Of a stretch of 24,000 nt of DNA, positions 7,067 through 24,000 are shown piece after piece (within the stretch, counting starts at the first letter, position 1; the number at the start of each line of letters is the position of its first letter). This DNA comes from Alphaproteobacteria bacterium (GTDB lineage Bacteria > Pseudomonadota > Alphaproteobacteria > JACZXZ01), in contig DATEQI010000597.1 in assembly GCA_035272805.1 (NCBI GenBank), positions 3,045 to 27,044 of the forward strand. The letters run 5' to 3'. Position numbers and translations under genes: made by a program. The notes under the pieces are model-generated. The model did not search any database and was not told the DNA's origin. It saw nothing but the letters and a program-made list of their open reading frames with translations.

Positions 7067-7720
7067 ATGAAGCGCATCAAGTGTCTCAAGGCAGCAATTC
7101 TGGCGGCGGCACTCTCGTTGCAGCCGCTGGCGGCACTGGCGGCGACGCCCGCGCCGAGCCTGAGTGCCGCCGACCAGGCGGACCTCGCGCGCGTCGAGGA
7201 GTATCTCAATTCCATTCGCACGGTCCACGGGCAGTTCCTGCAAAGTGCGGAGGGTGAGGTCTACGCCGAGGGCGCCTTCTACATCGAGCGGCCCGGCAAG
7301 ATGAGGATCCAGTACGCGACGCCCAATACGCTCTACATGGTGGCGAGCGGCTCGACGCTCTCGATCTACGATCCGCGCATCAAGAAGGCGAGCTATGTGC
7401 CGGTTGACGCGACGCCGGCCTACTACCTCTTCAAGGACAGGGTCGGCTTCGGCGACAGCATCGCGGCAAGCAAGCTCGAGCGCGGCGCGGCGTCGCTCCG
7501 TGTCACGATCTACCAGAAGGACCATCCCAACGATGGCCGCATCACGCTCGTCTTCAGCGACAAGCCGCTCGAGCTCAAGAAATGGAAGATGATCGATCAC
7601 GATGGCAACGAGATCGACATCTCCCTCGTCAACACCGAGTTCAATACCAAGCTCGATCCCAACCTCTTCAAGTTCGTCGACCCCTCGCCGACTTCCGAAG
7701 GCGCCGGGTCGACGCATTGA
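7067..7720 (+). CDS. lolA: LolA-like periplasmic lipoprotein carrier, copy 1 (217 aa)
   Basis: It has a signal peptide (LQPLAALAA/TP) with no lipobox. LolA-family blocks are present (F.Q..., ERPGKMRIQY, SIYDP, TPAYYL, C-terminal LFKFVDP). It occupies the classical position immediately downstream of ftsK. AGGAGCAAGCGT precedes the ATG. Confidence 0.8.
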   Translation: MKRIKCLKAAILAAALSLQPLAALAATPAPSLSAADQADLARVEEYLNSIRTVHGQFLQSAEGEVYAEGAFYIERPGKMRIQYATPNTLYMVASGSTLSIYDPRIKKASYVPVDATPAYYLFKDRVGFGDSIAASKLERGAASLRVTIYQKDHPNDGRITLVFSDKPLELKKWKMIDHDGNEIDISLVNTEFNTKLDPNLFKFVDPSPTSEGAGSTH

Positions 7721-7879
7721 TCGACCCGCCGGCCGGCATCGTGGCGCCGAGGCGGCGCAACTGCCGCCCGGTGGCTTGTTGTGCCCGCGCGGCCGCGGCA
7801 CCATATTGATCGGGCGCGGTTGCCGCCCGTGGCGTGCGGGCAAGGCGGCGCCGGGAGGACGCGGGCAGGAGTTGACGTC

Positions 7880-8518
7880 ATGAGGTTTCTCAAGCAAGCG
7901 ATTTTGGCAGCGGCCTTGGGACTCCAGCCGCTTGCGGCCGTGGCGGCGACGCCGGCGGCGAGCCTGAGTGCCGCCGACCGGGCGGACTTGGCACGGGTCG
8001 AGCAATACCTCGATTCGATCCGCACCGTCGCCGCGCACTTCATGCAGAGCTCGGACGGCCGCATTGCCCAGGGCAGCTTCTATCTCGAGCGGCCGGGCAA
8101 GATGAGAATCCAATACGATCCGCCCGATCCGCTTTTTATGGTGGCGAGCGGCATCTTTCTTTCCGTTTACGATCCGCAGCTCAAGCAGACCACTTATCTG
8201 CCCATCGACTCGACGCCGGCCTATTTCCTCGTCCAGGACAAGGTGGGATTCGGCGACAATGTCACGGTCGCCAAGGTCGAGCACGGCAGCGACTCGCTCC
8301 GCGTGACGCTCCATGAGAAGGGCCATCCCGACCAAGGCCGCATCACCCTCGTCTTCAGCGACAAGCCGCTCCAGCTGCGCAAATGGACCGTGATCGATCG
8401 CAACGGCAAGGAGATCGACGTGGCCCTGCTCGATGCCCAGTTCGATACCAAGCTCGACCCCAACCTCTTCAAGTTCGTCGATCCCTCGCCGAGCCCGGGT
8501 GCCGGGGGCCAGCGCTAA
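7880..8518 (+). CDS. LolA-like periplasmic lipoprotein carrier, copy 2 (212 aa), tandem paralog
   Basis: ORF 7781..8518. The start is taken at ATG 7880, after GGCAGGAG. By my hand alignment it matches copy 1 at ~134 of ~202 positions (about two thirds), including the signal peptide and an identical TKLDPNLFKFVDPSP tail. Confidence 0.8.
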   Translation: MRFLKQAILAAALGLQPLAAVAATPAASLSAADRADLARVEQYLDSIRTVAAHFMQSSDGRIAQGSFYLERPGKMRIQYDPPDPLFMVASGIFLSVYDPQLKQTTYLPIDSTPAYFLVQDKVGFGDNVTVAKVEHGSDSLRVTLHEKGHPDQGRITLVFSDKPLQLRKWTVIDRNGKEIDVALLDAQFDTKLDPNLFKFVDPSPSPGAGGQR

Positions 8519-12026: not shown

Positions 12027-12063
12027 GTTACGTTACTCGTAACAGCCACGGCATAGTGCCGTG
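12027..12063 (+). promoter_or_regulatory. two inverted repeats in the higBA promoter region (candidate HigA operators)
   Basis: GTTACG-ttact-CGTAAC spans 12027-12043. CACGGCA-tag-TGCCGTG spans 12047-12063, and its right arm contains the higB GTG start at 12061. The local sequence is AT-richer (TATGTTATGTGTTACG). Confidence 0.3.
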
Positions 12064-12342
12064 ATCAAGAGTTTTGCCGACAGCGACACGGCGGCACTCT
12101 ATGCCGGGCGTGAGGTGCGGCGATTTCGCGGCTATCGCATTCAGGCCGAGCGGCGTTTGGCGATCCTGCGAAACGCCAAGAGACTCGGCGATCTTGCCGG
12201 ATTGCGCAGCAACCGTCTCGAAGCGTTATCGGGAGGGCGCGCCGGGCAGTACAGCATCCGGGTGAACAGGCAATACCGGGTCTGCTTTCGCTGGTTCGAC
12301 AATAACGCCTACGATGTGGAGATCGTGGATTACCATCGTTGA
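12061..12342 (+). CDS. higB: HigB toxin (RelE/ParE superfamily, plasmid-maintenance killer type, 93 aa)
   Basis: MIKSFADSDTAALYAGREVRRF...LEALSGGRAGQYSIRVNRQYRVCFRWFDNNAYDVEIVDYH matches the HigB-type pattern (MIKSF..., L.G...G.WS[IV]RVN..[WY]R[IV].F.[WF]....A.DV...DYH). It has a GTG start. Toxin-first gene order is typical of hig loci. Confidence 0.85.
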   Translation: MIKSFADSDTAALYAGREVRRFRGYRIQAERRLAILRNAKRLGDLAGLRSNRLEALSGGRAGQYSIRVNRQYRVCFRWFDNNAYDVEIVDYHR

Positions 12343-12393
12343 ATCCGTTCGGCCATCGGCCCCGGGGACTATGTCGGCAGCAATGGGGAAGCC

Positions 12394-12729
12394 ATGACGA
12401 GCAAGAAAAAGGCGACGACGAGCTCCGCGCGGGAACCGGTCTTCGCAATGCGGCCGGTGCATCCGGGCGAGATTTTGCGCGATGAGATGGCCGAGCTGGA
12501 ACTTACGGCCAGGGCCCTCGGCCGCGCCCTCGATATCCCGGCCAACCGCGTGACGCAAATTCTCAAGGGGCAGCGCGCCGTGACGGCGGATACCGCGTTG
12601 CGGCTCGGCCGGTATTTCCGGACGTCGCCCGATTTCTGGCTCGGCCTGCAGAAGGATTACGAGCTGCGCCGGGCTGCCGACGAAGTGGGTGCCGCGATCG
12701 CGGCGAAAGTCCGTCCGCGCGCCGCTTGA
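12394..12729 (+). CDS. higA: HigA antitoxin (XRE-family HTH, 111 aa; alternative start at ATG 12448)
   Basis: PVHPGEILRDEMAELELTARALGRALDIPANRVTQILKGQRAVTADTALRLGRYFRTSPDFWLGLQKDYEL is the canonical HigA/VapI HTH core. It lies immediately downstream of higB. Confidence 0.85.
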   Translation: MTSKKKATTSSAREPVFAMRPVHPGEILRDEMAELELTARALGRALDIPANRVTQILKGQRAVTADTALRLGRYFRTSPDFWLGLQKDYELRRAADEVGAAIAAKVRPRAA

Positions 12730-13062: not shown

Positions 13063-13262
13063 CCGCGTTTCGTTGCCCTTGATCGAGCTTCTTTCGTATC
13101 GGAATGAAATTTATTGCGGGGCGTCAGGCCATGCTGATCCAACGCGAACGCCACCTTCCGTTCCCGGTTCGAAATTTTGCGATGGCCTTCGAACCGCTGT
13201 GCCGTCTCGTCGAGGCTTCTGACGATTACATCCACCATTTTCTTGTCCGTAAGCCGTGTCAT
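13059..13262 (-). CDS. small hypothetical protein (67 aa), first gene of a decayed bicistron
   Basis: MTRLTDKKMVDVIVRSLDETAQRFEGHRKISNRERKVAFALDQHGLTPRNKFH... sits in a patch of locally lower GC (13030-13260). Its stop overlaps the next ATG (ATGA), as in TA-type pairs. I recognise no family. Confidence 0.35.
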   Translation of the reverse strand: MTRLTDKKMVDVIVRSLDETAQRFEGHRKISNRERKVAFALDQHGLTPRNKFHSDTKEARSRATKRG

Positions 13263-13379
13263 CCTATAGCCTCTTCGATCGGCGCCCGGCGCCCGTGCTC
13301 ATACACCACGGGTGGCACCGGATCGCGGCGAGTGCGCATCCCGATGGGGAATGCTAGGATCGCTGCCGAGGAGTTTCGC

Positions 13380-13634
13380 ATGGACGACAAGGTTAACGTG
13401 ACCATTCCGGTCGAACCCGAGGCTGCGGCGGCGCTTGCGGACGCGCGCAATCGCGAGGCAGTCGGTCGGCTGGTCAGCCGCGTGCTCCGGCCGCAGGCAG
13501 GCCCGAGCCCACTCGCGCGAGCCATCGCCGAGATGAAGGCTGATGCGCGGGCAGCCGGCTTGGCCGATGCCGACATCGATGCCGAGCTTGCGGCGTACAA
13601 TGCCGAGCGGCGCAAACCCACCGCAACCGATTGA
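13380..13634 (+). CDS. small antitoxin-like protein (84 aa), apparently orphan
   Basis: ORF 13104..13634, with the likely start at ATG 13380 after GAGGAG. MDDKVNVTIPVEPEAAAALADARNREAVGRLVSRVL...ADADIDAELAAYNAERRK resembles the small acidic-tailed antitoxins that pair with PIN toxins in Rhizobiales-type genomes. This is recognition by eye, not verified. Confidence 0.45.
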   Translation: MDDKVNVTIPVEPEAAAALADARNREAVGRLVSRVLRPQAGPSPLARAIAEMKADARAAGLADADIDAELAAYNAERRKPTATD

Positions 13635-13680: not shown

Positions 13681-14169
13681 TCACTCCACGCGATACATGA
13701 AATAGCGCCCGGGCTCGAGCTCGCCGGGAAGCTCGAGCTCGCGCCATGCCGGGTGCGGCATGGGCTGGTCGCCGAGCACGACCCCGCCCGCTGCCATGAG
13801 CGGGGCGAGGAGCGGGGCAATCTCGGCGGCGAGCGCCCGGCTCGCCTCCGGGCTGTGCGAGCCGATGTCGCAGTGGGCGAGGGCCGCCTTGGCGCCGAGG
13901 TGCTTAAGTGCGCTCGGCAGCGTGTCGCGAAAGTCGCCTTGAATGAAATGCCCGGCGTCGGGGCGCGAGCTCGGGTGTGCCGCGAGCTCGCGGTCGAAGA
14001 CGAAGATCTCGCGGCCCCCGAGGCGCTCGCGCAAATGGTCGTAGGTGCGGCCGTTGCCGAGCCCGAGCTCGAGGACCGGGCCCGGAAGGGCTGCGATGAG
14101 CTTGGCCGCGTGGTCGATCGTGGCGCGTTGGGCGAGGAGGCGCCGGATGAAGCTGTCGAGCCGGCTCAA
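13681..14169 (-). CDS. small class-I SAM-dependent methyltransferase-like protein (162 aa)
   Basis: LELGLGNGRTYDHL (GxGxG SAM motif I), followed by an acidic FVFDRE (motif II-like). The size and sequence are reminiscent of the short stand-alone 'Methyltransf_17'-type family (from memory). Its TTG start overlaps the upstream stop (TTGA). Confidence 0.6.
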   Translation of the reverse strand: MSRLDSFIRRLLAQRATIDHAAKLIAALPGPVLELGLGNGRTYDHLRERLGGREIFVFDRELAAHPSSRPDAGHFIQGDFRDTLPSALKHLGAKAALAHCDIGSHSPEASRALAAEIAPLLAPLMAAGGVVLGDQPMPHPAWRELELPGELEPGRYFMYRVE

Positions 14170-14624
14170 TGGTGCTCCGCGTGATCGACCGCGTCGCGCA
14201 ATTGATGCGTGGTGCGCTCGAGGCGGTCGGCGAGCACGCGCATGATCTCGATCCCCATCTGGGGGAATTCGGTGATCAGCTTGAAGAAGAGCTCCTTCGA
14301 GATGCGCAAGGTGACGAGCTCGCTTTTCGCCTTCACGGTCGCGGTGCGCGGCACATCGCAGAGAATCGCGATTTCGCCCACGATATCATTGCGCCCGAGC
14401 TTGGCGACCACGAGCGGCCCCGCCGGTGTGTCGACGACCACATCGGCCTCGCCGGAGAGGATGATGTAGGCGGCGTCTCCCGGGTCGCCCTGATGAAAGA
14501 GCACCTGGTCGGCATGGTAGGTGAGGCGTTCCGAGGTGAAGGCGAGCAGCTTGAGCTTCGAGGCCTCGATTTTCCCGAAGAGCGGGATGTTGCGCAGGAT
14601 GTCGACTTCTTCCTTGAGACTCAT
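14166..14624 (-). CDS. stand-alone cyclic-nucleotide-binding (CAP effector-type) domain protein (152 aa), no output domain
   Basis: LFGKIEASKLKLLAF...FHQGDPGDAAYIILSGEADVVV...GRNDIVGEIAILCDVPRTATVKA contains the phosphate-binding cassette G-E-[IL]-A...R-[ST]-A with the cNMP-contacting Arg retained. There is no HTH or other effector domain. A GGAGG Shine-Dalgarno lies 6 nt upstream, and the ATG is 18 nt after the ABC gene stop. Confidence 0.85.
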   Translation of the reverse strand: MSLKEEVDILRNIPLFGKIEASKLKLLAFTSERLTYHADQVLFHQGDPGDAAYIILSGEADVVVDTPAGPLVVAKLGRNDIVGEIAILCDVPRTATVKAKSELVTLRISKELFFKLITEFPQMGIEIMRVLADRLERTTHQLRDAVDHAEHH

Positions 14625-14642
14625 CTTGACCTCCAGCCCGCC

Positions 14643-17309
14643 CTATTCCGCCGCCACCATCTCGTGGAACGCCGAGCCTGCGCGGTTGAGCTCGGCGACC
14701 GCACCCTCCTCCACCAGCTTTCCGCTGCGCATGACGAGGACGCGGTCGAAATTGCGCGCGAGCTCGGCACGGTTGAGCACGGCGACAAGGCCGCGGCCCT
14801 TGAACTCCGCGCGCAGGTTCTCGAGAACCCTGCTTTGGGAGCTGCTGTCGAGGGCCGCCAGCGCATCATTGAGGATCAGGAGGTCGGGCCGCTTCAACAC
14901 CACGCGCGCGATCGCGAGCTTCTGCCGCTGCGCGCCGGAGAGGCGGCTGCCGGCGCTTCCGATGTTGTAGCCGAGGCCGGCCTCCATCACCGAGCCCCGC
15001 AGCTCAAGCGTCTCGAGCACTTCCTGGATGAGCGCACCTACCCGCTGCGCGCCTTGAGGCTGGCCGTAGGCGACCTTGCCGAAGAGCACGTTGTCCTGCA
15101 GCGTGGCCGCGGCATTGTAGCTCTCGAAATCGAAGAACGCGACCGCCCCCCGCAACTCCGGCGGCAGCCCGTCGCGGAAGACGTCGCGCGCCTCGAGGAT
15201 GCGCTGCTTGAAATTCGCGTCGATCAGATCGAGGCGATGACGGGCCGGAATGAGCTTGAAGGGCAGGTTCAAGAGACGGTTCTTGTCCTCCTCCTTGAGC
15301 TGGTCGAGGCCGCTCGTGCCCACGCGCGTGAGCAAGGCCTGGAACTCGGGAAGCTCGTCGGCGCTGATGAAGGAGTATTGCTCGAAGAGCTCGCTCCCCG
15401 GCGGCAGACCGGCGAAGAGCTCGACCATGGTCGTGGCTGCCTCGCGCCCCATGCCCAGGATGAGCCCCGTGAGGCCGGTCTTGTCGAGGACCTGGCGCAC
15501 GTAAGCGTTCCCGGCGAGGCGCTCCATGTCGAAGGCGTCGCCCACGGGCGTGCCGAAGAGGAGATTCTCGGCGACGCTCGCGTTGTCGTTGTAGCGTTTT
15601 CGGTCGAAGAGCTCGACGAGTTGCGCGAAACTCGGCTCCGCGAGCCGCTCGCGCAAGGCGTGGCGCGCCTCGAGGACGCTCTTGGCGAGGTCGGGCCGCT
15701 TCGCGGGATCGATGACGCTGAGCAGGCCCACGTGATAGACGTCGTCCTCCATCTCGGTGAGTTTGAGGATCTCGAGGGCGCGTTCCCTGAGCTCGGCCTT
15801 CGAGCCGGCTCCTGCCGCGGCATAATCGATCCACTCGGCTGCGACGTCGAGTGGCGGGTTCCCGGTACGCACGGCCTCCGCCATCAACGCTTGGCGCTCG
15901 GGCGAAGACGGGCCTTCCGATAACGGCTTGTGCTTGAGCGCGTAAAAGAGATTGCTGTCTATGGTGCCGGAGAAGAGATAGCTGTGCTGAGCGACGAAGC
16001 CGACGCGCCGTCCACTGATCGCCTCGGGCCAATCGGCGATATTCTCCCCCCCGATCGTGATCTTGCCGCCGCTCGGCGGCAGGAGCCGGGCCAGCATCAG
16101 GCCGAGCTCCTCCTTGCCGCTGGCACCCGTGCCGACGACGGCGATGTGGTTGTCGAGCGCGAAGCGCGCCGAGACGTTGTCGACGATCTTGAGTCGGCCG
16201 TCCTCGCTGAAGCTGACGTTGGCGAGCTGCACTTCGCCCTTGAGCGGCTCGATCCTCTCGGGCTCGACGAGCTGCCCCTGCTCGTCGCTCGTGCCGGGCG
16301 GGGCGAACTGCTGAACCACCTGCTCGTACATGATCCGCGCGTTGTCCTTGCTCTGGTAGAAGGTGAGCAGCTCGCCCCAGGGGCCCGCGAGATCCTTTTG
16401 CGCGCCGATGACCGCGACGAGCGCTCCGATATCGAGCTGTCCCTGCAAGACCAGATAGCCCCCGATCGTGAAGAAGAAGAACGGCGTCACCTTGTCGGCC
16501 GTGTTGTTGATGTATTTGACGAGGAACTTGAGGATGAAAATCCTGAGGCGGGTATAGTATTGCGTATAGAGACGGTCGGAGAAGTCGGCGCGCTCGAAAC
16601 GGGAGGTGTCGTTGGCGTGAATCTCAAGCGCTCCGCCCACCGCCTCGCCGAGGCGTTCGGAGAGCCCGCGTTGCGTGCGGATGCGCCGCTTGTTGTGCTC
16701 GTTGATGCGCTTCTGCATTTTCGGGATGAGATAGCCCTGCCCGGGATAAAGCGCCACCGCCGCCAGCCCGAGCCAGGGGTTCTGCATCAGGATGAAATAG
16801 AGCGGCACCAGCAGCAGCCCGCCTTGAAATATCGGCGTCGCAACGGCATCGCCGACGAATTCGCCCAAGGTCACGGTCTCGGCGATGAGCATCGCGATGA
16901 TCTCGCCCACGGAGATCTTCTTGAAGTGGGGGAGGGGAAAACAGAGGATGCGGCTGTAGAGCTGATAGCGCATGCGGCGCAGCATGCGCTCCCCGAGGCG
17001 GCCCTTGTAGACATTGATGAAGTACTTGAAGCCGCCGTTCACGATGGTCAGCGCCAGGAACACGACGGAGAGCAGCATGAGCCAGTTGACCGCGCCGAAA
17101 TCCATGCCGAAAAGGTGGTTCGCCTTCACGGAGGCGAGCCCGCCCCCGCGGTAGGCCTGGTTCGCCGAGTCCTTGATGTGATTGATGATCAGCTTGGGCA
17201 GGTCATAGGAGTAGTAGAGAAACGGGAACGAGACTCCCGTGACCATGAGCAAGACGATTTGCTCCTTAAAGCTATACTTTAGGATAAACCGGTAAATATT
17301 TTTTTCCAC
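14643..17309 (-). CDS. ABC exporter-like fused permease/NBD protein with degenerate NBD motifs and a large NBD insertion (888 aa from GTG 17309; 906 aa if GTG 17363)
   Basis: The N-terminal ~340 aa has a type-I exporter TMD pattern. The NBD carries GTGASGKE (Walker A), VAQ (Q-loop), LSGAQRQKLAIAR (signature), LLILNDALAALD (Walker B/D-loop) and VAVLNRA (H-loop position). I prefer the start VEKNIYRFILKYS at GTG 17309, which has GGGGA 9 nt upstream and matches the usual N-termini of this transporter class. Confidence 0.85.
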   Translation of the reverse strand: MEKNIYRFILKYSFKEQIVLLMVTGVSFPFLYYSYDLPKLIINHIKDSANQAYRGGGLASVKANHLFGMDFGAVNWLMLLSVVFLALTIVNGGFKYFINVYKGRLGERMLRRMRYQLYSRILCFPLPHFKKISVGEIIAMLIAETVTLGEFVGDAVATPIFQGGLLLVPLYFILMQNPWLGLAAVALYPGQGYLIPKMQKRINEHNKRRIRTQRGLSERLGEAVGGALEIHANDTSRFERADFSDRLYTQYYTRLRIFILKFLVKYINNTADKVTPFFFFTIGGYLVLQGQLDIGALVAVIGAQKDLAGPWGELLTFYQSKDNARIMYEQVVQQFAPPGTSDEQGQLVEPERIEPLKGEVQLANVSFSEDGRLKIVDNVSARFALDNHIAVVGTGASGKEELGLMLARLLPPSGGKITIGGENIADWPEAISGRRVGFVAQHSYLFSGTIDSNLFYALKHKPLSEGPSSPERQALMAEAVRTGNPPLDVAAEWIDYAAAGAGSKAELRERALEILKLTEMEDDVYHVGLLSVIDPAKRPDLAKSVLEARHALRERLAEPSFAQLVELFDRKRYNDNASVAENLLFGTPVGDAFDMERLAGNAYVRQVLDKTGLTGLILGMGREAATTMVELFAGLPPGSELFEQYSFISADELPEFQALLTRVGTSGLDQLKEEDKNRLLNLPFKLIPARHRLDLIDANFKQRILEARDVFRDGLPPELRGAVAFFDFESYNAAATLQDNVLFGKVAYGQPQGAQRVGALIQEVLETLELRGSVMEAGLGYNIGSAGSRLSGAQRQKLAIARVVLKRPDLLILNDALAALDSSSQSRVLENLRAEFKGRGLVAVLNRAELARNFDRVLVMRSGKLVEEGAVAELNRAGSAFHEMVAAE

Positions 17310-17563
17310 AGTCTTTTTCCCCTGTCCCCAGCCGCCTCGAAGGGGTGCGCGGCGGCCCAGCACCTTAGCCTAGTGCGAGCGGGCCGTAAATGCCGCCCCG
17401 GGCGGTCGGTGCCGAATGGGAGGCATGCGGCCCGTTTCGCAGCACCTGCGGCGAATGACGGCAGGATCGGCCGGCGGGGCCACCTGCTGGCGCGGCGCCA
17501 CAAGAAGCGCGCTCGCCGCAACAGGAACGCAGATTGGCGTCACCCCTTCGTCACAAGACTCGC

Positions 17564-17593
17564 TTTGACGCCGATGGGCGCGATAGGCTATGG
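17564..17593 (+). promoter_or_regulatory. sigma-70-type promoter candidate for the glycosyltransferase operon
   Basis: -35 is TTTGAC (17564-17569), followed by an 18-nt spacer and -10 CTATGG (17588-17593), ~30 nt upstream of ATG 17624. The -35 overlaps the right arm of the inverted repeat GGCGTCA (17536-17542) / TGACGCC (17566-17572). Confidence 0.25.
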
Positions 17594-17623
17594 GGTAGCC
17601 GAATCTCGAGGGGGCCGGTCGCA

Positions 17624-18844
17624 ATGTCGAGCCGCAAAGGCACGCGCGTTCTGATCTACAGCCACGACACCTTCGGCCTCGGACATTTGAGGCGCTGTCG
17701 GGCCATCGCGCATTCCCTTGTCGAGCACCACAAGGACATGTCGGTGCTGATCCTCTCGGGCTCGCCGATCATCGGCAGCTTCGATTTTCGCGCGCGCGTC
17801 GATTTCGTGCGCGTGCCCGGGGTCATCAAGCTCCACAACGGCGAATACACCTCCTTGAATCTCCATATCGACATCGGCGAGATGCTTGCCATGCGCTCGT
17901 CGATCATCCGCCACACGGCCGACACCTTCGATCCGGATCTCTTTCTCGTGGACAAGGAGCCGCTCGGCCTGCGCGGCGAGATCGAGGACACGCTGTCCCT
18001 CTTGAAGGCCCGCGGCGTGCCGATCGTCCTCGGCCTGCGCGACGTGATGGACGAGCCCGCGCTGCTCGCGCCCGAATGGGAGCGCAAGAAGGTGCTGCCG
18101 GCGCTCGCCGACTTCTATGACGAGATCTGGATCTACGGCTTGCCGCAGGTGTGCGATCCGCTCGAGGGGATCGAGATTCCCGACTCCGTTCGGCGTCGCA
18201 CGGTCTACACCGGCTATCTCGAGCGCAAGGTGCCGACGCATCTCACCCACATGCCGGCACGGCCGCGCCTGGAAGTGCCGTATCTGCTCGTGACGCCGGG
18301 AGGCGGGGGGGATGGCGACGCGCTCATCGACTGGGTGCTGCGCGCCTACGAGCAGTATCCCACGATGCCCCACCCGGCGCTCATGGTGCTCGGTCCTTTC
18401 ATGCAGCCGGAGCGCCAAGGCGAATTCATGGTGCGCGCGAGCCAGCTCAAGAACGTCGAGATGATGACCTTCGATGCGCGTATGGAGACGCTTGTCGATG
18501 GCGCGTTGGGGGTCGTCGCCATGGGGGGATACAACACCTTCTGCGAGATCCTCTCCTTCGACAAGCCGGCACTCATCGTGCCCCGCACCGCACCCCGGCT
18601 CGAGCAATACATCCGCGCCTCGCGCGCCCAGGAGCTCGGCCTGGTCTCGCTCCTGGTCGACCAGTACGCGCGCGATCCCCACATGATGGCGACCGCACTG
18701 CGCCAGCTGCCGCAGCAGAAGCGGCCCTCGGACGTGGTCGTGCCGGGGCTGCTCGACGGTCTCAGCAACGTGAACCGCCTGGTCGAGCGGCATCTCAGGC
18801 CGCGCCATGTCCATCCGGTGCCGGTCGCCACGGGTCACCCGTAG
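17624..18844 (+). CDS. GT-B fold glycosyltransferase, MurG/GT28-C-like 'predicted glycosyl transferase' (COG4671-type), 406 aa
   Basis: ORF 17534..18844, with the start at ATG 17624. The N-terminus reads RVLIYSHDTFGLGHLRRCRAIA. The C-terminal nucleotide-sugar motif reads VVAMGGYNTFCEILSFDKPALIVPR. Confidence 0.75.
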   Translation: MSSRKGTRVLIYSHDTFGLGHLRRCRAIAHSLVEHHKDMSVLILSGSPIIGSFDFRARVDFVRVPGVIKLHNGEYTSLNLHIDIGEMLAMRSSIIRHTADTFDPDLFLVDKEPLGLRGEIEDTLSLLKARGVPIVLGLRDVMDEPALLAPEWERKKVLPALADFYDEIWIYGLPQVCDPLEGIEIPDSVRRRTVYTGYLERKVPTHLTHMPARPRLEVPYLLVTPGGGGDGDALIDWVLRAYEQYPTMPHPALMVLGPFMQPERQGEFMVRASQLKNVEMMTFDARMETLVDGALGVVAMGGYNTFCEILSFDKPALIVPRTAPRLEQYIRASRAQELGLVSLLVDQYARDPHMMATALRQLPQQKRPSDVVVPGLLDGLSNVNRLVERHLRPRHVHPVPVATGHP

Positions 18845-18848
18845 AGCC

Positions 18849-20183
18849 GTGGTGCCCACCGTCGCAGTCATCCTCAAGGGCTATCCGCGCCTTTCCGAGA
18901 CCTTCATCGCGCAGGAGCTCAGGGAGCTCGAGCGCCGCGGGCTCTCGCTCCACATCGTCTCGCTGCGCCATCCGACCGACGCGGTCCTCCATCCCATCCA
19001 TCGCGAGATCGCGGCCCCGGTGCTCTACGTGCCCGAGTATCTGCACGACGAGCCGCAGCGCGTGCTGAGCGCGTGGCGGGCGCTCAGGGGATCGAGGGGC
19101 TACCGGCGCGCCCGCGCGGCCTGGCTCGCCGATCTCGCCCGCGATCCCACGCCCAACCGCGTGCGCCGCTTCGGCCAGGCGCTCGTGCTTGCGCACGAGC
19201 TGCCGCCTCGGGTCGAGCGGCTTCACGCTCACTTCCTCCACACGCCTGCCTCGGTCGCGCGCTACACGAGCCTCATGACCGGCCTCAAGTGGAGCTGCTC
19301 TGCGCACGCCAAGGACATCTGGACGATACCCGCGTGGGAGAAGCGCGAGAAGCTCGCGAGCCTCGATTGGCTCGTCACCTGCACGCGCGCCGGCGCCGAG
19401 CATCTCAAGGCGCTCAGCAGCGAGCCGCGCAAGATCGAGCTCGTCTATCACGGACTCGATCCGGCGCGCTTCCCGCCGCGCGAGGCGGCACCGTCGCCGC
19501 GCGATGGACGCGATCCCTCAGCACCGGTCGTGATCCTCTCGGTCGGCCGGCTCGTCGCCAAGAAAGGCTACGGCGATTTGCTCGCTGCCTTGGCACGGCT
19601 TCCCAAGGCGCTCCACTGGCGCTTTATCCATGTGGGGGGCGGACCGCTCGCGCAGTCGCTCGCGCGCGGGGCCGCGAGATGCGGGATCGCCGCGCGCGTC
19701 GCCTGGCTCGGGCCGCTCTCCCAGGAGGCCGTGCTGGCGCAATATCGCAGCGCCGATCTCTTCGCGCTCGCCTGCCGCGTGGCGCCCGACGGCGATCGGG
19801 ACGGCCTGCCCAACGTGCTTCTCGAGGCGCAGAGCCAGGGACTCGCCTGTCTTTCGACCACGGCGGGCGGCGTTCCCGAGCTGATCGAAGCGGGGCGGTC
19901 CGGCCTGCTCGCCCAACCGGGCGACGTGCCGGCACTCGCAGCACACTTGGCACGGCTTATTCAGGAGCCCGCGTTGCGCGCGCAGCTCGCTCGCGCAGGT
20001 GCGGCGCGGGTGCGCCAGAGTTTCAGCTTCCAGCCTGGCATCGCGCGGCTTGCCGAGAAGTTCGGCCTTTCCGCGGGCGGGGAGGCGGATGGCAAGCTGC
20101 CCGCCGCTGCCGCCGAGACGAGCACGGAAGCTGCCGCCAGCGGGCCGCTACCGTCATGCGCATCGCGTTCTATGCGCCGCTGA
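18849..20183 (+). CDS. GT4-family glycosyltransferase (WcaL-like N-terminus), ~444 aa
   Basis: ORF 18807..20183. I prefer GTG 18849, 4 nt after the upstream stop, because homologs of this type begin a few residues before the VAVILKGYPRLSETFI block. ATG 18807 would give a 38-nt overlap. The GT4 E-x7-E region is DGLPNVLLEAQSQGLACLSTTAGGVPELI. Confidence 0.75.
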   Translation: MVPTVAVILKGYPRLSETFIAQELRELERRGLSLHIVSLRHPTDAVLHPIHREIAAPVLYVPEYLHDEPQRVLSAWRALRGSRGYRRARAAWLADLARDPTPNRVRRFGQALVLAHELPPRVERLHAHFLHTPASVARYTSLMTGLKWSCSAHAKDIWTIPAWEKREKLASLDWLVTCTRAGAEHLKALSSEPRKIELVYHGLDPARFPPREAAPSPRDGRDPSAPVVILSVGRLVAKKGYGDLLAALARLPKALHWRFIHVGGGPLAQSLARGAARCGIAARVAWLGPLSQEAVLAQYRSADLFALACRVAPDGDRDGLPNVLLEAQSQGLACLSTTAGGVPELIEAGRSGLLAQPGDVPALAAHLARLIQEPALRAQLARAGAARVRQSFSFQPGIARLAEKFGLSAGGEADGKLPAAAAETSTEAAASGPLPSCASRSMRR

Positions 20184-21295
20184 AGCCGCCGGACCATCCG
20201 GTGCCCTCGGGAGACCGGCGCGTCGGCCGTGCGCTCATCGCAGCCCTCGGCCTCGCCGGACACGAGGTGAGGCTTGCCTCGCGCCTGCGCAGTTGGGACG
20301 GTGCGGGAGATGCGGCCCGGCAGCGCCGTATCGAGCGCCTGGGCGGGCGGCTCGCCTCCCGCCTCATTCGCCGATACGGCAGCGAGCCTCGGCTGCGGCC
20401 GGAACTCTGGCTCACCTACCATCTCTATCACAAGGCGCCGGACTGGCTTGGGCCCGCGGTTGCGAGCGAGCTCGCGATACCCTATGTCGTCGTCGAGGCG
20501 TCATCGGCGCGCAAGCAGGCGAGCGGCTGCTGGGCAATGGGGCATGCCGCGAGTGCCGCCGCGATCGCGCGCGCGGACGCCCTCATCAATCTCAACGGCG
20601 ACGATCGCGAGGGTTTGCTTCAGCTGGTCGGCGAGCCCGCGCGCATCAGCCACTTGGCCCCGTTCATCGAGACGGCGGCCTATGCCCGGGCCAAACCCGC
20701 GCGCACAAGGCTCGCCGAGCGCTATGGGCTCGACTCAGCACGGCCTTGGCTCCTCGCGGTTGCGATGATGCGGGAGGGGGCGAAGCTCGCCTCCTATCGC
20801 GTGCTGGCCGAGGCGCTGCGCCTCATCGACGGCCTCGACTGGCAGCTCGTCATCGTCGGCGACGGCCCGGCGCGCGGCGAGGTCGAGGCGCTGCTGGCCC
20901 CCCTCGGCGAGGGCCGCGCGCGCTTGCTTGGCGCGCTCGCGGCGGAGGCGCTGCCCCCGCTCTATGCCAGCGCCGATCTTTATCTCTGGCCCGCCATCCA
21001 CGAGGCCTTCGGCATGGCGTTCCTCGAGGCCCAGGCCGCCGGGCTGCCGGTGGTCGCGGGGCGCGAGCGCGGCGTGCCGGAGGTCGTGCGCGAGGGCGAG
21101 GCGGGCCTGCTTGTGCCACCGAGCGACGCCCGCGCCTTCGCCGCCGCGGTCGCAACGCTCCTTGCCGATCCCGGCCGCCGCCGTGCCATGGGTGCCCGCG
21201 CCCGCGCGATTGCCTCTGCCGAGGCCGACATCGGCGCCGCAGCGAGGCGGCTGGATGCGATCCTGCGGCAGGTCCTCGCGGAGCGGCGGGCATGA
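20156..21295 (+). CDS. GT4-family glycosyltransferase (379 aa)
   Basis: This is the in-frame ATG 20156 of ORF 19073..21295. Everything upstream of it in that ORF is a shadow of the preceding gene. It begins MRIAFYAPLKPPDHPVPSGDRR and has the GT4 motif HEAFGMAFLEAQAAGLPVVAGRERGVPEVV. It overlaps the upstream gene by 28 nt. Confidence 0.8.
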   Translation: MRIAFYAPLKPPDHPVPSGDRRVGRALIAALGLAGHEVRLASRLRSWDGAGDAARQRRIERLGGRLASRLIRRYGSEPRLRPELWLTYHLYHKAPDWLGPAVASELAIPYVVVEASSARKQASGCWAMGHAASAAAIARADALINLNGDDREGLLQLVGEPARISHLAPFIETAAYARAKPARTRLAERYGLDSARPWLLAVAMMREGAKLASYRVLAEALRLIDGLDWQLVIVGDGPARGEVEALLAPLGEGRARLLGALAAEALPPLYASADLYLWPAIHEAFGMAFLEAQAAGLPVVAGRERGVPEVVREGEAGLLVPPSDARAFAAAVATLLADPGRRRAMGARARAIASAEADIGAAARRLDAILRQVLAERRA

Positions 21296-21882
21296 CGCAG
21301 CTGGCGCTCATCCGCCATGCCGCGAGCGCGTGGAGCGAGCGCGGGCTCATCCAGGGCCGCGCCGACCCCTCGCTCAGCCCCGGCGGTGCCGCCGCTGCCG
21401 CGGCCTGGCGCGTGCCGGCCGCACTCGCCGCCTTCGACTGGGTGGCGAGCCCGCTTGCGCGCGCCTCTGAGACCGCCCGTCTTCTCCTCGGCCGCGAGGT
21501 GGCCGTCGAGCCCTCGCTCATCGAAATGGCATGGGGCGATTGGGAGGGCGAGCATCTTGCCGAGCTTCGCGCCAAGCTGGGCGCCGCGATCGCCGAGAAC
21601 GAAGGGCGCGGGCTCGACTTCCGTCCGCCGGGCGGGGAGAGCCCGCGCGATGTCCAGCGCCGTCTCGAGCCGTGGCTCGCGCGCGTGGCGCTCAGGGCCC
21701 GGCCCACGGCGGCCGTGACGCATAAGGGCGTCATCCGCGCCGTCGTCGGTTTGGCGACCGGGTGGGACTTTCTCGGCAAGCCGCCGCTGCGGCTCGCCCC
21801 CGCCACAGCCCAGCTCTTCGAGCTTGACGAAGGCGGGCGGCCGCGCCTTCTCTCAGCCAACATCCCGCTCGCCGCACCGTGA
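21292..21882 (+). CDS. histidine phosphatase superfamily (phosphoglycerate-mutase-like) protein (196 aa)
   Basis: MTQLALIRHAASAWSERGLIQGRAD carries an RH[GA] catalytic motif. Further blocks are WGDWEG...GESP...VTHKGVIRA (second His). Its ATG overlaps the upstream TGA (ATGA). Confidence 0.8.
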   Translation: MTQLALIRHAASAWSERGLIQGRADPSLSPGGAAAAAAWRVPAALAAFDWVASPLARASETARLLLGREVAVEPSLIEMAWGDWEGEHLAELRAKLGAAIAENEGRGLDFRPPGGESPRDVQRRLEPWLARVALRARPTAAVTHKGVIRAVVGLATGWDFLGKPPLRLAPATAQLFELDEGGRPRLLSANIPLAAP

Positions 21883-23048
21883 GCCGCCTCCTCCTCTACG
21901 TCCAGAGCCTCCTCGGCGTCGGCCATCTGGCGCGCGCCGCCCTCCTTGCGCGCGCCTTCGCCGCGGCCGGCTGGGAGGTCGACCTCGTCTCCGGAGGCAT
22001 GCCCGTTGGAGAAGTGAGCGCGGGTGCGGCCCGCCTCGTTCAGCTGCCCCCCGCGCGCAGCCGAGACGAGGCCTTCAGCGGGCTCGTGGACGAGGCGGGC
22101 AAGGCGGTCGACGCGGCTTGGCGCCAGGCGCGCCGCGAGCGTCTCCTAGCACTCTTCGCCGAGCGCCGGCCGGACGTCCTGATCCTCGAGATGTTTCCCT
22201 TCGGCCGCCGGCAGATGCGCTTCGAGCTCCTCCCGCTCCTCGCTGCGGCGAGGGCCGCGGCGCGCCCTCCGCTCGTCGTCTCCTCCGCGCGCGACGTCGT
22301 GCAAGGCCGGCGCAAGCCGGGCCGGGCGGAGGAGGCGTTGGCCCTCCTCGAGGAGGCTTTCGACCTCGTCCTTGTGCACGGCGATCGGCACCTCGTGCGC
22401 TTCGAGGAGAGCTTTCCGCTCGCAGCCGAGCTCGGTGCCCGGCTGCGCTACACCGGCTATATCGCCCCGCCTCAAGTACCCCGGGGCCGCGCCGGTGAGG
22501 TGGGCTGGGACGAAGTGGTGGTCTCGGCCGGGGGTGGGGCTGTTGGCGCAGCACTGCTTGAAACGGCATTGGCCGCGCGGCCGCTCAGCAAGCTCAAGGC
22601 TCGCCGCTGGCGCCTTCTTGCCGGCCGCAACCTGCCTCAAGGTGCGTTTGCCGCCCTTGCCGCCCAGGCGCCGCCCGATGTTGTCGTCGAGCGCGCGCGC
22701 CCGGATTTTCAAGGGCTCTTGGCCAATTGCCGCGTGTCGATTTCCCAGGCCGGCTATAATACGGTGATGGACATTGCGAGTGCTGACGCGCGGGCCGTGC
22801 TCGTGCCCTTCGTCGGGCTCGGCGAGACGGAGCAGACGCTCCGTGCCGAGAAGCTCGCGGCGCGCGGGCTCGTGCAAGTCGTCCCCGAGCGCCAACTGAC
22901 GGCGGCACGTCTCGCTGCCGCGGTCGATGCGGCCGAGGTGATGCCGGCCCCCCGCTTCGCCGCTTTCGACATGTCGGGTGCTGCGACCAGCGTGCGCATC
23001 GTGAGCGAGGTATTGTCCCGCCGCCCGGCCGCGGGGGTGCGCGCATGA
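21879..23048 (+). CDS. second MurG/COG4671-like GT-B glycosyltransferase (389 aa), paralog of 17624..18844
   Basis: LLYVQSLLGVGHLARAALLA parallels LIYSHDTFGLGHLRRCRAIA in the first copy. The C-terminal VSISQAGYNTVMDIASADARAVLVPF parallels the GGYNT block. Its GTG start overlaps the upstream TGA (GTGA). Confidence 0.7.
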   Translation: MSRLLLYVQSLLGVGHLARAALLARAFAAAGWEVDLVSGGMPVGEVSAGAARLVQLPPARSRDEAFSGLVDEAGKAVDAAWRQARRERLLALFAERRPDVLILEMFPFGRRQMRFELLPLLAAARAAARPPLVVSSARDVVQGRRKPGRAEEALALLEEAFDLVLVHGDRHLVRFEESFPLAAELGARLRYTGYIAPPQVPRGRAGEVGWDEVVVSAGGGAVGAALLETALAARPLSKLKARRWRLLAGRNLPQGAFAALAAQAPPDVVVERARPDFQGLLANCRVSISQAGYNTVMDIASADARAVLVPFVGLGETEQTLRAEKLAARGLVQVVPERQLTAARLAAAVDAAEVMPAPRFAAFDMSGAATSVRIVSEVLSRRPAAGVRA

Positions 23049-23845
23049 GCAGCTGGGCAGCACTTGAGCGCGAGCTCGACGCCTGGCAGGCGGCGGGCCG
23101 GGTCGCGAGCCTGTGGTGGCGCGATGACGACGCGGTGGACACCACGCCGGCGCTCGAGCGGCTGCTCGCGACCGCAGGCACCTATGGCATCCCGTTGGCG
23201 CTCGCCGTGGTGCCGCAGCCGGCCCGCGCGAGCCTCGCGGACGCGATCGGCGATGCGCCGGCCGTGACTCCGCTGCCACACGGCTACGCGCATGTGAGCC
23301 ATGCCCCCGCGGGCGCCAAGAGCGGCGAGCTCGGGCCTGCGCGGGCGGTTGCGGTGAACCTCCGTGAAGCAGCACTCGGCTGGCAGCGCCTTCAGGCGCT
23401 CTTCGGCAGCCGGGCCTTCCCCGTGCTCGTGCCGCCGTGGAATCGCATCGATCCGGCGCTCATCCCGCACTTGCCCGGACTCGGCTTTTGCGGCCTCTCG
23501 GCTTGGGGGGCGCGCACAGAAGCGCTTCCGGCACCCGGCCTCGTGCAAGCCAATGCCCACCTCGACCTCATCGACTGGCGCGGCAGCCGCGGCTTCGTCG
23601 GCGAGGCGGATGCGCTCGACGAGCTCGCCTCCCATCTCGCGGCGCGCCGTCGCGGCGAGGTGGACCCGGACGAGCCGAGCGGCCTGCTCACGCACCACCT
23701 CGCTCATGACGCCGGCGCTTGGCGCTTCATCGAGACGCTCTTCGCGCGGACCCTGGGCCACTCTGCCGTCCGCTGGCTCGACGCGGAGGAGATCTTCCGG
23801 CCTTCGCAAGCGAGGCCGCGCGCCGCCGCCCCCGACGGTCCATGA
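23045..23845 (+). CDS. polysaccharide deacetylase (NodB/CE4-like) family protein (266 aa)
   Basis: LWWRDDDAVD is an Asp-Asp motif-1-like block and HGYAHVSH is a His-x-x-x-His metal motif. LVPPWNRI and LLTHHLAHD are also present. Its start overlaps the upstream stop (ATGA). Confidence 0.6.
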   Translation: MSSWAALERELDAWQAAGRVASLWWRDDDAVDTTPALERLLATAGTYGIPLALAVVPQPARASLADAIGDAPAVTPLPHGYAHVSHAPAGAKSGELGPARAVAVNLREAALGWQRLQALFGSRAFPVLVPPWNRIDPALIPHLPGLGFCGLSAWGARTEALPAPGLVQANAHLDLIDWRGSRGFVGEADALDELASHLAARRRGEVDPDEPSGLLTHHLAHDAGAWRFIETLFARTLGHSAVRWLDAEEIFRPSQARPRAAAPDGP

Positions 23846-24000
23846 GCATCCATCGCTATCCCAGGGCGGCATTGCGGGGGGATTACGTGCGGGCCGGGAT
23901 CGGCCTGGTCCTCACGGGCGGGCTCGCGGCACTGGCAGGGGGCCAGCCGGTCGCCACGGGGGTGCTGGGGGGTGCGGCGCTGCTTTTCCTCGCCTTCGCC
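23842..24000 (+). CDS. membrane protein, N-terminal 53 codons (runs off window end)
   Basis: ATG 23842 overlaps the upstream TGA (ATGA). It reads MSIHRYPRAALRGDYVRAGIGLVLTGGLAALAGGQPVATGVLGGAALLFLAFA, with hydrophobic helices, and the frame is open to nt 24000. Confidence 0.5.
   Translation, partial: MSIHRYPRAALRGDYVRAGIGLVLTGGLAALAGGQPVATGVLGGAALLFLAFA

Follow-up and report, generated by a model that had tools for sequence, protein, structure and literature searches.

A Conserved, Probable Glycan Locus of Alphaproteobacteria with an Unusual Transport and Regulation Module

Gene Organization of the Locus

The locus described here is a divergent array of glycosyltransferase (GT), tailoring-enzyme and transport genes in a 24,000-nt stretch of DNA from an alphaproteobacterium (assembly GCA_035272805.1, contig DATEQI010000597.1, positions 3,045 to 27,044). 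This whole stretch is referred to as the window, and all positions are given on it. Domains of the open reading frames (ORFs) were assigned by Pfam profile search and equivalogs by NCBIfam models. The G+C content was 61–76% across the window. The locus is best regarded as a cluster for glycan synthesis whose enzymes belong to known families and whose conserved module for transport and regulation is unusual. Its ten named genes, which are the window ORFs carrying protein-family support (Pfam), and the region from which they diverge are as follows (aa, amino acids).

13681..14169, minus strand: S-adenosylmethionine (SAM)-dependent methyltransferase, Methyltransf_17, 162 aa (Pfam PF12692, E 1.5e-58, full length)
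14166..14624, minus strand: stand-alone cyclic-nucleotide-binding (CNB) protein, 152 aa (Pfam PF00027 cNMP_binding, E 4e-21, 75 bits)
14643..17309, minus strand: half-transporter with the fold of ATP-binding cassette (ABC) exporters, 888 aa, called the ABC-like protein below (ABC_membrane PF00664, E 2e-16; split ABC_tran PF00005, E 1.6e-14)
17310..17623, no strand: divergent control region between the ABC-like gene and GT 1
17624..18844, plus strand: GT-B glycosyltransferase 1 (GT 1), 406 aa (Glyco_tran_28_C PF04101, 27.6 bits)
18849..20183, plus strand: GT4 glycosyltransferase a (GT4a), 444 aa from GTG 18849 (Glycos_transf_1, E 3e-28)
20156..21295, plus strand: GT4 glycosyltransferase b (GT4b), 379 aa (Glyco_trans_1_4, E 6e-31)
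21292..21882, plus strand: histidine-phosphatase superfamily enzyme, 196 aa (His_Phos_1, E 7.5e-37)
21879..23048, plus strand: GT-B glycosyltransferase 2 (GT 2), 389 aa (Glyco_tran_28_C PF04101, 35 bits)
23045..23845, plus strand: CE4 (NodB-fold) deacetylase-like enzyme, 266 aa (no Pfam match; motifs and fold model)
23842..24000, plus strand: 5' part of the gene for a 163-aa protein with an N-terminal hydrophobic hairpin (frame open at the window end; hydropathy)

An earlier sequence-only reading of this DNA had proposed two operons diverging from a control region, and the coordinates and strands of the genes agreed with that layout. All of its domain assignments were likewise borne out by the Pfam, NCBIfam and fold searches. 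The rightward junctions, which it gave as a chain of overlaps with one near-abutment, proved exact when read base by base. The TAG of GT 1 at 18844 was followed by the GTG of GT4a at 18849, with an alternative in-frame ATG start at 18807. The ATG of GT4b at 20156 and the TGA of GT4a at 20183 made a 28-nt overlap, and the remaining junctions were ATGA overlaps at 21292–21295, 23045–23048 and 23842–23845 and a GTGA overlap at 21879–21882. Tight stoichiometric co-expression, which the earlier reading took from these overlaps, is a prediction. In the leftward operon, the stop codon of the CNB gene and the TTG start of the methyltransferase gene overlapped as TTGA (14166–14169), and the CNB and ABC-like genes were separated by an 18-nt gap between 14624 and 14643. 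Two of the earlier start positions had to be moved by one base, GT 1 to ATG 17624 (not 17623) and the ABC-like gene most likely to GTG 17309 (not 17310), and the rest were correct. The GTG at 17309 was preceded by GGGGA, and an identical 888-aa protein (P0241) was called from the same start.

The C-terminal tail of GT4a (20060–20183) was of low complexity, rich in Ala, Ser and Glu (…GGEADGKLPAAAAETSTEAAASGPLP…), and absent from the relatives. The 28-nt overlap with GT4b sits in this tail, which indicates that the overlap length is lineage-specific; in the syntenic relative L003 it was 4 nt.

The earlier estimate of about ten genes was right for the ten genes but too small for the locus. It had been expected to continue beyond nt 24000, and an identical metagenome contig (L001), which runs 1.7 kb beyond the window, showed an ATPase gene next. 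The stop codon of the 163-aa gene overlapped the start of this gene, which encodes a fused double ATPase of the Opp/Dpp/Yej type. The 163-aa protein and the fused ATPase were thus coupled downstream, and an importer followed in most relatives.

Glycosyltransferases and Tailoring Enzymes

The Glyco_tran_28_C matches of GT 1 and GT 2 (27.6 and 35.0 bits) passed the cut-off of 22, and the N-terminal GT28 domain (Glyco_transf_28) was detected in neither. The two paralogues were about 25% identical. GT 1 matched the NCBIfam model MJ1255 (39.6 bits) and was MJ1255-VC2487-like with no murG match, and GT 2 scored 24.3 bits against the murG model, for which the cut-off is 250 bits. More than 8000 homologues of GT 1 were found, and its identity to proteins of Skermanella and Dongiaceae was 72–75%. 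GT4a was WcaL/EpsE-like over its full length (EpsE 130 bits, WcaL 85 bits, both below the NCBIfam cut-off). The best NCBIfam matches of GT4b were BshA (86.7 vs 273.7 bits) and MshA (74 vs 462.5 bits), which did not reach equivalog level, and its translation showed an E-x7-E motif (HEAFGMAFLE). No convincing transmembrane segment or signal peptide was found in the GTs, the phosphatase or the 266-aa enzyme, with one borderline hydrophobic stretch in GT 2. The description of four soluble-type GT-B enzymes therefore stands.

For the 266-aa protein, neither Pfam nor NCBIfam gave a match at E ≤ 0.01, Polysacc_deac_1 and NodB/PgdA included, and a sequence search of the PDB gave nothing useful for it or for GT 1. 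Five CE4-like motifs were invariant in 52 homologues: D27-D28-D29, H79/H83, PWNR131-134, H172-x-D174-x3-W178 and H217/H218. Its AlphaFold model had a pLDDT of 95. The top 25 PDB matches of this model in Foldseek were CE4-type deacetylases except for a phage protein and ChbG; the matches (E about 5e-7, TM 0.5–0.64) included peptidoglycan, chitin and acetylxylan deacetylases and ArnD. Some homologues carried the source name 'polysaccharide deacetylase family protein'. On motifs and model, the protein is assigned as a CE4 (NodB-fold) deacetylase, in line with the NodB-like deacetylase of the earlier reading. The absence of Pfam and NCBIfam matches indicated a divergent, separately evolving CE4 branch, and the absence of a signal peptide indicated that the enzyme would act in the cytoplasm.

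The histidine phosphatase gene lay immediately after GT4b in all non-rhizobial loci with GT4b. Methyltransf_17 was co-located with the GTs in Skermanella, metagenome-assembled genomes (MAGs), Amylibacter and Ruegeria, and in loci of the Ruegeria/Amylibacter type it was inside the GT operon. Its gene was tandemly duplicated in some relatives (L011 5638-6629; P0266 contig).

The ABC-Like Protein and Its CNB Partner

The ABC-like protein comprised a six-helix ABC_membrane-type domain followed by a nucleotide-binding domain (Pfam, AF2 model). Its AF2 model had a pLDDT of 81.7, and the top Foldseek matches were P-glycoprotein, HlyB, MsbA, TmrAB and PCAT1 (E about 1e-18 for the first four). No NCBIfam exporter model was passed: scores against cut-offs were 189/602 bits for MsbA, 169/725 for HepA, 153/733 for the NdvA type and 82/1000 for PglK. 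The earlier reading had called the protein an ABC-type exporter, and this held for the fold but not for the nucleotide site. The window copy had GASGKEE, LILNDA and an N at the H-loop (HMMER register confirmed against ABCB19), and the canonical combination of Walker A GxxGxGK[ST], Walker B hhhhDE, Q-loop Gln and H-loop His was not present. Of 48 homologues, 25 retained the Q-loop Gln and 35 the H-loop His. An apparent carboxylate swap was seen family-wide, with an acidic residue in place of the Walker A Ser/Thr and Asn in place of the Walker B Asp. Such a site may be either inactive or an alternative mode of binding Mg-nucleotide.

A mostly helical insertion of ~300 residues (about residues 460–780) was confidently modeled between the Q-loop region and the signature motif, and it repeated a short post-Q-loop strand-helix element ('N-[LI]-LFG') three times. 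The transmembrane half was the best-conserved part of the protein.

The CNB protein consisted of a CNB domain only, with no DNA-binding or effector domain. Its phosphate-binding cassette, GEIAILCDVPRTATV, was kept in 9 orthologues and carries the intact G-E ... R-[ST]-A pattern of cyclic-nucleotide receptors, which points to a protein able to bind cyclic nucleotides. It would not belong to the CRP/FNR family: the C-terminal helix-turn-helix was lacking, and the CRP model gave 50.9 vs 266 bits. The CNB gene directly followed the ABC-like gene in every locus that had the ABC-like gene. Of all features of the locus, this pair is the likeliest to be novel.

The Downstream Importer

The fused ATPase on L001 contained two ABC_tran domains and oligo_HPY (Pfam). 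It was GsiA/YejF-like (GsiA 613 and YejF 507 bits, both below cut-off), and the CntF model gave 383 vs 385 bits. In L002 and L003, the ATPase gene was followed by genes for an SBP_bac_5 binding protein and BPD_transp_1 permeases, and in the relative on a 90-kb MAG contig the binding-protein gene overlapped the ATPase gene. The genes seen in L001, L002 and L003 together made up an Opp/Dpp/Yej cluster-C importer; the window ends before them. The binding protein and permease co-occurred with the GTs in L002, L003, L007, L009, L014, L016, L018, L020, L021 and L024, even across differing gene orders.

The L003 orthologue was used to compare the binding protein with the PDB. Its top match was an uncharacterized structural-genomics entry (5ipw, 9e-88), and its closest characterized relative was SPH1118 (E 1.7e-70, full-length alignment), followed by an alpha-galactoside binder and a chitin-oligosaccharide binder. 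The peptide binders DppA, OppA and MppA gave E of only 1e-9 to 1e-12, which did not place the protein among them, and the match to CntA was weak (47 bits). SPH1118 of Sphingomonas sp. A1 binds acidic oligosaccharides (oligogalacturonides/pectin; PMC9314435, PMC7055323).

Conservation and Variants in Relatives

The whole array recurred in the same order and with chained overlaps in Skermanella pratensis and on the 90-kb MAG contig. The recurring order was methyltransferase, CNB and ABC-like gene, divergent from GT, GT4, GT4, phosphatase, GT, CE4, membrane protein, ATPase, binding protein and permeases. Species-representative genomes and a tblastn synteny table added 15 more loci, among them Azospirillaceae, Enhydrobacter and Amylibacter, with GT 1 identities from 98% to 49%. 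Consistent with the earlier view of these genes as one locus, the same genes in the same order were present in more than 15 alphaproteobacterial genomes. Gene order and overlaps were kept in relatives with protein identity from 98% down to about 45%; such recurrence in relatives sharing just 45–80% identity is not expected by chance. Distant relatives, in which the ABC-like protein was ~52% identical, had the locus in the same chromosomal slot (FtsK-LolA-C26 peptidase-Exo_endo_phos). This indicated long vertical inheritance.

Rearranged versions were found on R. leguminosarum plasmids, S. meliloti pSymB (at 837 kb), the megaplasmid of Ruegeria sp. TM1040 and in Amylibacter. Of the 275 records that matched in the plasmid collection (PLSDB), Rhizobium accounted for 143 and Sinorhizobium for 80. 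The locus is thus co-conserved across three alphaproteobacterial orders (Rhodospirillales-like soil bacteria, rhizobia and marine Rhodobacterales), and the genes were kept together through rearrangements, which argues that they are functionally linked. Its core is GT4a, the second GT28-like enzyme and the fused ATPase, with Methyltransf_17 in most versions. GT4a was present in every version examined and GT 2 in every full-length version; GT 1 was missing from one subclade, and the ABC-like/CNB pair was present everywhere except in Rhodobacterales. On an Azospirillum oryzae plasmid, a lone GT 1 copy (L023 3549-4793, 72% identical) lay a few kb from Tn3/IS6-family transposases and is probably a mobilized fragment.

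Several lineages carried additional genes. In Amylibacter, a dehydrogenase gene started one base after the methyltransferase gene, and its product passed the TviB equivalog (UDP-GlcNAc 6-dehydrogenase; 601.7 vs 592 bits). The Rhizobium and Sinorhizobium loci carried nucleotide-sugar dehydrogenases of the ManNAc/GlcNAc type, a class III cyclase and DUF3095. The S. meliloti locus added a PF14099 polysaccharide lyase, an MBL-fold hydrolase and an FkbM methyltransferase. Its lyase gene lay between the cyclase and the importer (L022 8666-9634 on pSymB; L026 10468-11340 in strain 1021). The cyclase copy beside the lyase gene in strain 1021 was truncated (65% coverage) and may correspond to 'SMb21257, hypothetical adenylate cyclase, truncated', an identity that is unverified. 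MscS/MscK-family channels adjoined the locus in Amylibacter, Ruegeria and S. meliloti. In the subclade without GT 1, a gene for an AMP-forming ligase was found between the CE4 and small membrane protein genes (L029 3281-4906; L030 3355-4980). This insertion suggests acylation or aminoacylation of an amine freed by deacetylation. A cyclase-TPR protein was encoded near the L029 locus.

Control Region and Flanking Genes

An alignment of eight related intergenic regions showed two conserved blocks in the control region, and the invariant columns fell there. One contained a leftward promoter-like element on the minus strand, TTTACG (17390–17385), 16 nt and CTAAGG (17368–17363); the other contained a rightward element, TTGACG (17565–17570), 17 nt and CTATGG (17588–17593). 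A strict scan with the E. coli promoter consensus gave 0 sites. The alphaproteobacterial promoter consensus is CTTGAC-N17-CTATAT. From their conservation and this consensus, the blocks are predicted to be divergent alphaproteobacterial sigma-70-type promoters, with predicted transcription starts near 17356 (leftward) and 17600 (rightward). A direct repeat, CGTCAC-N5-CGTCAC (17538–17554, 11 bp apart), lay immediately upstream of the rightward -35-like element and was kept only in the closest relatives (L005, L006 and L008). It could be a response-regulator site.

The remaining genes of the window encoded GlnK-AmtB, FtsK, two LolA paralogues, a C26 peptidase, a ferredoxin-reductase-type protein, Exo_endo_phos and a HigB/HTH pair. 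The LolA-family genes were in tandem after FtsK (7067–7720 and 7781–8518, plus strand), and a single LolA was present in L003, L029 and L030. The HigB-like toxin (PF05015) and HTH_3 antitoxin-like genes (12061–12729, plus strand) lay between the Exo_endo_phos and methyltransferase genes. This toxin-antitoxin pair was missing from the syntenic L003 and L030, and it is therefore probably a recent insertion at the locus boundary. A putative coding ORF of 176 aa without Pfam match (13104–13634, plus strand) lay just outside the methyltransferase gene. Rfam and tRNA scans gave no match.

Comparison with Known Pathways

Pfam scans of all plausible ORFs found no Wzx/Wzy, Wza/Wzc (PCP/OPX), priming transferase or GT2 synthase in the window, as the sequence-only reading had stated. 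None of these was present either among the called, Pfam-matched genes within 10 kb in Skermanella, L003 and L028–L030. For ABC-dependent capsule or O-antigen, the window scans found no KpsM/T, KpsD/E, KpsS/C or WecA-type genes, and the only exporter-like protein was a fused MsbA-fold half-transporter, not separate KpsM/Wzm and KpsT/Wzt. The locus also differed from the synthase-dependent polysaccharide systems (cellulose, alginate, PNAG and Pel), with four soluble GT-B enzymes and no GT2, PilZ or porin in the window. PADLOC gave no defense signature: the CNB domain had only a generic Pycsar-effector match with no effector domain, the ABC-like nucleotide-binding domain had a weak mad3 match, and the other proteins had none. 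No study or named system for the locus was found in the literature outside subscription journals, and the earlier failure to match it to a named system was thus repeated.

Several characterized systems share part of its logic. In the Nod-factor pathway (NodC, NodB, NodS, NodA and NodIJ), the cytoplasm produces a short oligomer of N-acetyl sugars, from which a CE4 enzyme removes an acetyl group; a SAM methyltransferase then methylates it and an ABC system exports it. The proposed steps here follow this logic, but the locus lacks a NodC-type GT2, NodA and NodIJ, its CE4 enzyme has no NodB match, and Methyltransf_17 is not NodS. The GT4, phosphatase, deacetylase and, in L029/L030, ligase mirror MshA, MshA2, MshB and MshC of the mycothiol/bacillithiol pathways. 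However, the deacetylase has a CE4 rather than an LmbE fold, and besides a methyltransferase and transport genes the locus has three GTs more. The thiol used by Alphaproteobacteria is glutathione. The NdvA/ChvA, MsbA and HepA exporters have the same transmembrane fold and domain order as the ABC-like protein, whereas the latter has replaced Walker residues, the ~300-residue insertion and a CNB neighbor. The staphylopine Cnt system likewise combines biosynthesis genes, an exporter and a cluster-C binding-protein-dependent importer in one locus; here, the enzymes are glycosyltransferases instead of opine synthases, and nothing suggests metal binding. SPH1118, although the nearest characterized solved relative of the binding protein, serves pectin chemotaxis and assimilation, not an endogenous product.

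In S. meliloti, the msbA2 operon (SMb21188-91) contains an acyltransferase, two GTs and MsbA2, and it has been proposed to make and export an unknown saccharide (PMC3687685). It resembles the locus in being a compact operon that combines GTs and an MsbA-like half-transporter outside the Wzx/Wzy and KpsMT routes, but it has four genes, none of them listed as CNB, CE4, phosphatase, Methyltransf_17 or Opp-type importer (PMC3687685). It was rejected as the S. meliloti counterpart, as a ChvI-bound fragment within SMb21188 maps to 938 kb of pSymB (PMC3687685) and the counterpart lies at 837 kb. The Clr regulon cluster nodP2-SMb21248 was rejected as a different locus. S. meliloti makes a glucuronan lyase, and the glucuronan genes are reported to be unknown (PMC10180729). 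A glucuronan product was kept as a weak lead only: a homopolymer would not call for four different GT-B enzymes, and the window has no lyase or dehydrogenase.

A cousin of eight genes was found on the E. coli IncF plasmid p1RM9088 (NZ_CP042296.1 32389-42567; L025 8998-19005), where its neighbors are K88 fimbrial genes and the gene of a SPATE protease. It encodes GT28, GT4, GT4, an ABC exporter, two APH-family kinases, an alginate-export porin and a nucleotide-sugar dehydrogenase, and no description of it was found in the literature. It shares with the locus the core of GT28-like enzyme, GT4, GT4 and ABC exporter, with GT 1 33% identical, and the associated nucleotide-sugar dehydrogenase. It differs in its 604-aa exporter of ordinary length with unsplit ABC_tran, in having kinases in place of the phosphatase and an outer-membrane porin, and in lacking CNB, CE4, methyltransferase and importer.

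Proposed Function and Alternatives

We propose, tentatively and with a probability of roughly 45%, that the locus is a 'make, release and recapture' system for a small tailored oligosaccharide or glycoside, probably an acidic amino-sugar compound, under cyclic-nucleotide control. Three or four soluble GT-B enzymes would use nucleotide sugars to build a short glycan of defined structure in the cytoplasm, possibly on a phosphorylated acceptor. Its probable components are N-acetyl-amino sugars, joined in at least some lineages by N-acetyl-hexosaminuronic acid. The histidine phosphatase would then remove the phosphate, the CE4 enzyme an acetyl group, and the small SAM methyltransferase would methylate the product. 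Release may occur through the MsbA-fold half-transporter, probably as a gated or facilitated pathway controlled by the adjoining CNB protein, and the product or its fragments may be re-imported by the translationally coupled Opp/Yej-type ABC importer with its binding protein of the oligosaccharide branch. The CNB protein and, in several lineages, cyclases would control the release.

Different observations bear on the separate steps. The few cytoplasmic enzymes, the tailoring steps and the lack of lipid-carrier or polymer machinery point to a short defined glycan or glycoside instead of a polysaccharide. The dehydrogenases, the lyase and the relatives of the binding protein suggest acidic N-acetyl-amino sugars in some lineages at least. 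The pairing of a membrane protein of exporter fold with a sugar-type importer suggests release and recapture of the compound, and the predicted direction of transport through the ABC-like protein is outward. Its non-canonical nucleotide site means that ATP-driven export is not assured and that a gated or facilitated pathway is probable rather than a classical ATP pump. The putative link to cyclic nucleotides is strengthened by the class III cyclase genes in the Rhizobium, Sinorhizobium and L029 loci.

Several findings weigh against this proposal. The Walker A Ser/Thr was present in 1 of 48 homologues and replaced by Asp/Glu in 44, and the Walker B Asp was present in 3 and replaced by Asn in 37. 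In rhizobial orthologues the Walker A lysine was also lost, and the site there was fully degenerate. The ABC-like protein may thus carry out no transport at all, or it may have a sensor role. In Rhodobacterales, the ABC-like/CNB pair was not found within about 7–14 kb on either side of the locus. In L028 (2495-4384) and L029 (837-2732) the fused ATPase ended the GT operon, with no binding protein or permease in the examined stretch; the fused ATPase, not the complete importer, may therefore be the conserved partner. Membership of the GT-B family gives neither donor nor acceptor, and as the window has no nucleotide-sugar gene, the composition of the product is extrapolated from distant relatives.

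The strongest competitor, which we consider unlikely overall, is an intracellular glycoside following mycothiol/bacillithiol-type or compatible-solute logic and serving as an osmolyte, redox cofactor or storage compound. A GT4 enzyme would link an N-acetyl-amino sugar to a phosphorylated acceptor, followed by dephosphorylation, CE4 de-N-acetylation and, in some lineages, acylation by the ligase. The compound would leave through MscS-type channels on downshock and be recaptured by the ABC importer, and the ABC-like/CNB pair would be regulatory instead of an exporter. The conserved order GT4b, His_Phos, (second GT), CE4 fits this route, as does the ligase gene right behind the CE4 gene in L029 and L030. 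The enzymes are all cytoplasmic, genes for MscS/MscK-family channels lie beside the locus in Amylibacter, Ruegeria and S. meliloti, the nucleotide site departs from the canonical pattern, and recapture importers beside compatible-solute synthesis genes are an established pattern. BshA and MshA are the best NCBIfam matches of GT4b, but with scores far under cut-off that are typical of any GT4 enzyme. Three or four GTs and a methyltransferase also exceed the needs of known compatible-solute glycosides. The strong conservation of the transmembrane domain argues for a role of the ABC-like protein in membrane transport or gating, and the S. meliloti lyase and the alginate-export porin of the E. coli cousin point to an extracytoplasmic product.

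That porin, found with GT28, GT4, GT4 and a canonical ABC exporter, would also fit a second alternative, in which the locus makes a cell-envelope glycoconjugate, such as a glycolipid, a decoration of lipopolysaccharide core or lipid A, or a short surface polysaccharide of the ABC-dependent kind. Assembly would take place on a lipid in the inner leaflet, the MsbA-like protein would flip the product, and the Opp-type system would be a neighbor with a separate function. GT28-type enzymes such as MurG and monogalactosyldiacylglycerol (MGDG) synthase act on lipid acceptors. The best family matches of the ABC-like protein (MsbA, HepA, NdvA and PglK types), its MsbA fold match and the comparable S. 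meliloti msbA2 operon (PMC3687685) agree with such a product. We nevertheless regard it as rather improbable. Neither the window nor the flanks contain a priming phosphoglycosyl transferase, acyltransferase, OPX/PCP or ligase, the GTs have no membrane anchor, and the nucleotide site is again non-canonical. Unlike a chance neighbor, the importer genes are coupled in translation to the GT operon and stay with it where the locus is rearranged, across three orders, and Rhodobacterales retain the GT and importer genes with no ABC-like gene nearby.

A salvage system that imports an exogenous acidic oligosaccharide (e.g., plant or algal uronide fragments) by the Opp-type transporter and processes or re-uses it with the cytoplasmic enzymes appears very improbable. 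In its favor, the binding protein resembles the pectin/oligogalacturonide-binding SPH1118, a lyase gene adjoins the importer in S. meliloti, and the host plasmids and chromids of rhizobia and Ruegeria are rich in catabolic genes. Against it, the window and close relatives contained none of the enzymes of a uronate catabolic route (glycoside hydrolase, isomerase, kinase, dehydrogenase), four biosynthetic-type GT-B enzymes are unexpected in a catabolic operon, and the Rhodospirillales-like lineage has the locus among housekeeping genes.

A bolder form of the make, release and recapture proposal would treat the ABC-like protein and the CNB protein as a new cyclic-nucleotide-gated efflux gate that works without ATP hydrolysis or is energized in trans by the fused Opp-type ATPase. 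With the importer, it would secrete and recapture a novel methylated, de-N-acetylated oligosaccharide of amino or uronic sugars, which in Alphaproteobacteria, rhizobia among them, would serve as an osmolyte, signal or public good. We give this full version only a small chance.

Significance

The locus is more than an oddity of one metagenome contig: GT 1 has thousands of close homologues, and the gene set is kept across three lineages. Tractable carriers exist in S. meliloti, R. leguminosarum and Ruegeria sp. TM1040, which makes the model directly testable. If the proposal is true, the locus would represent an unrecognized class of small glycans for whose release and uptake bacteria have dedicated machinery, and its ABC-like protein an ABC-fold family with a systematically rewired nucleotide site coupled to a cyclic-nucleotide sensor. 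It would also provide a concrete output for the mostly orphan adenylate and guanylate cyclases of rhizobia and other Alphaproteobacteria.

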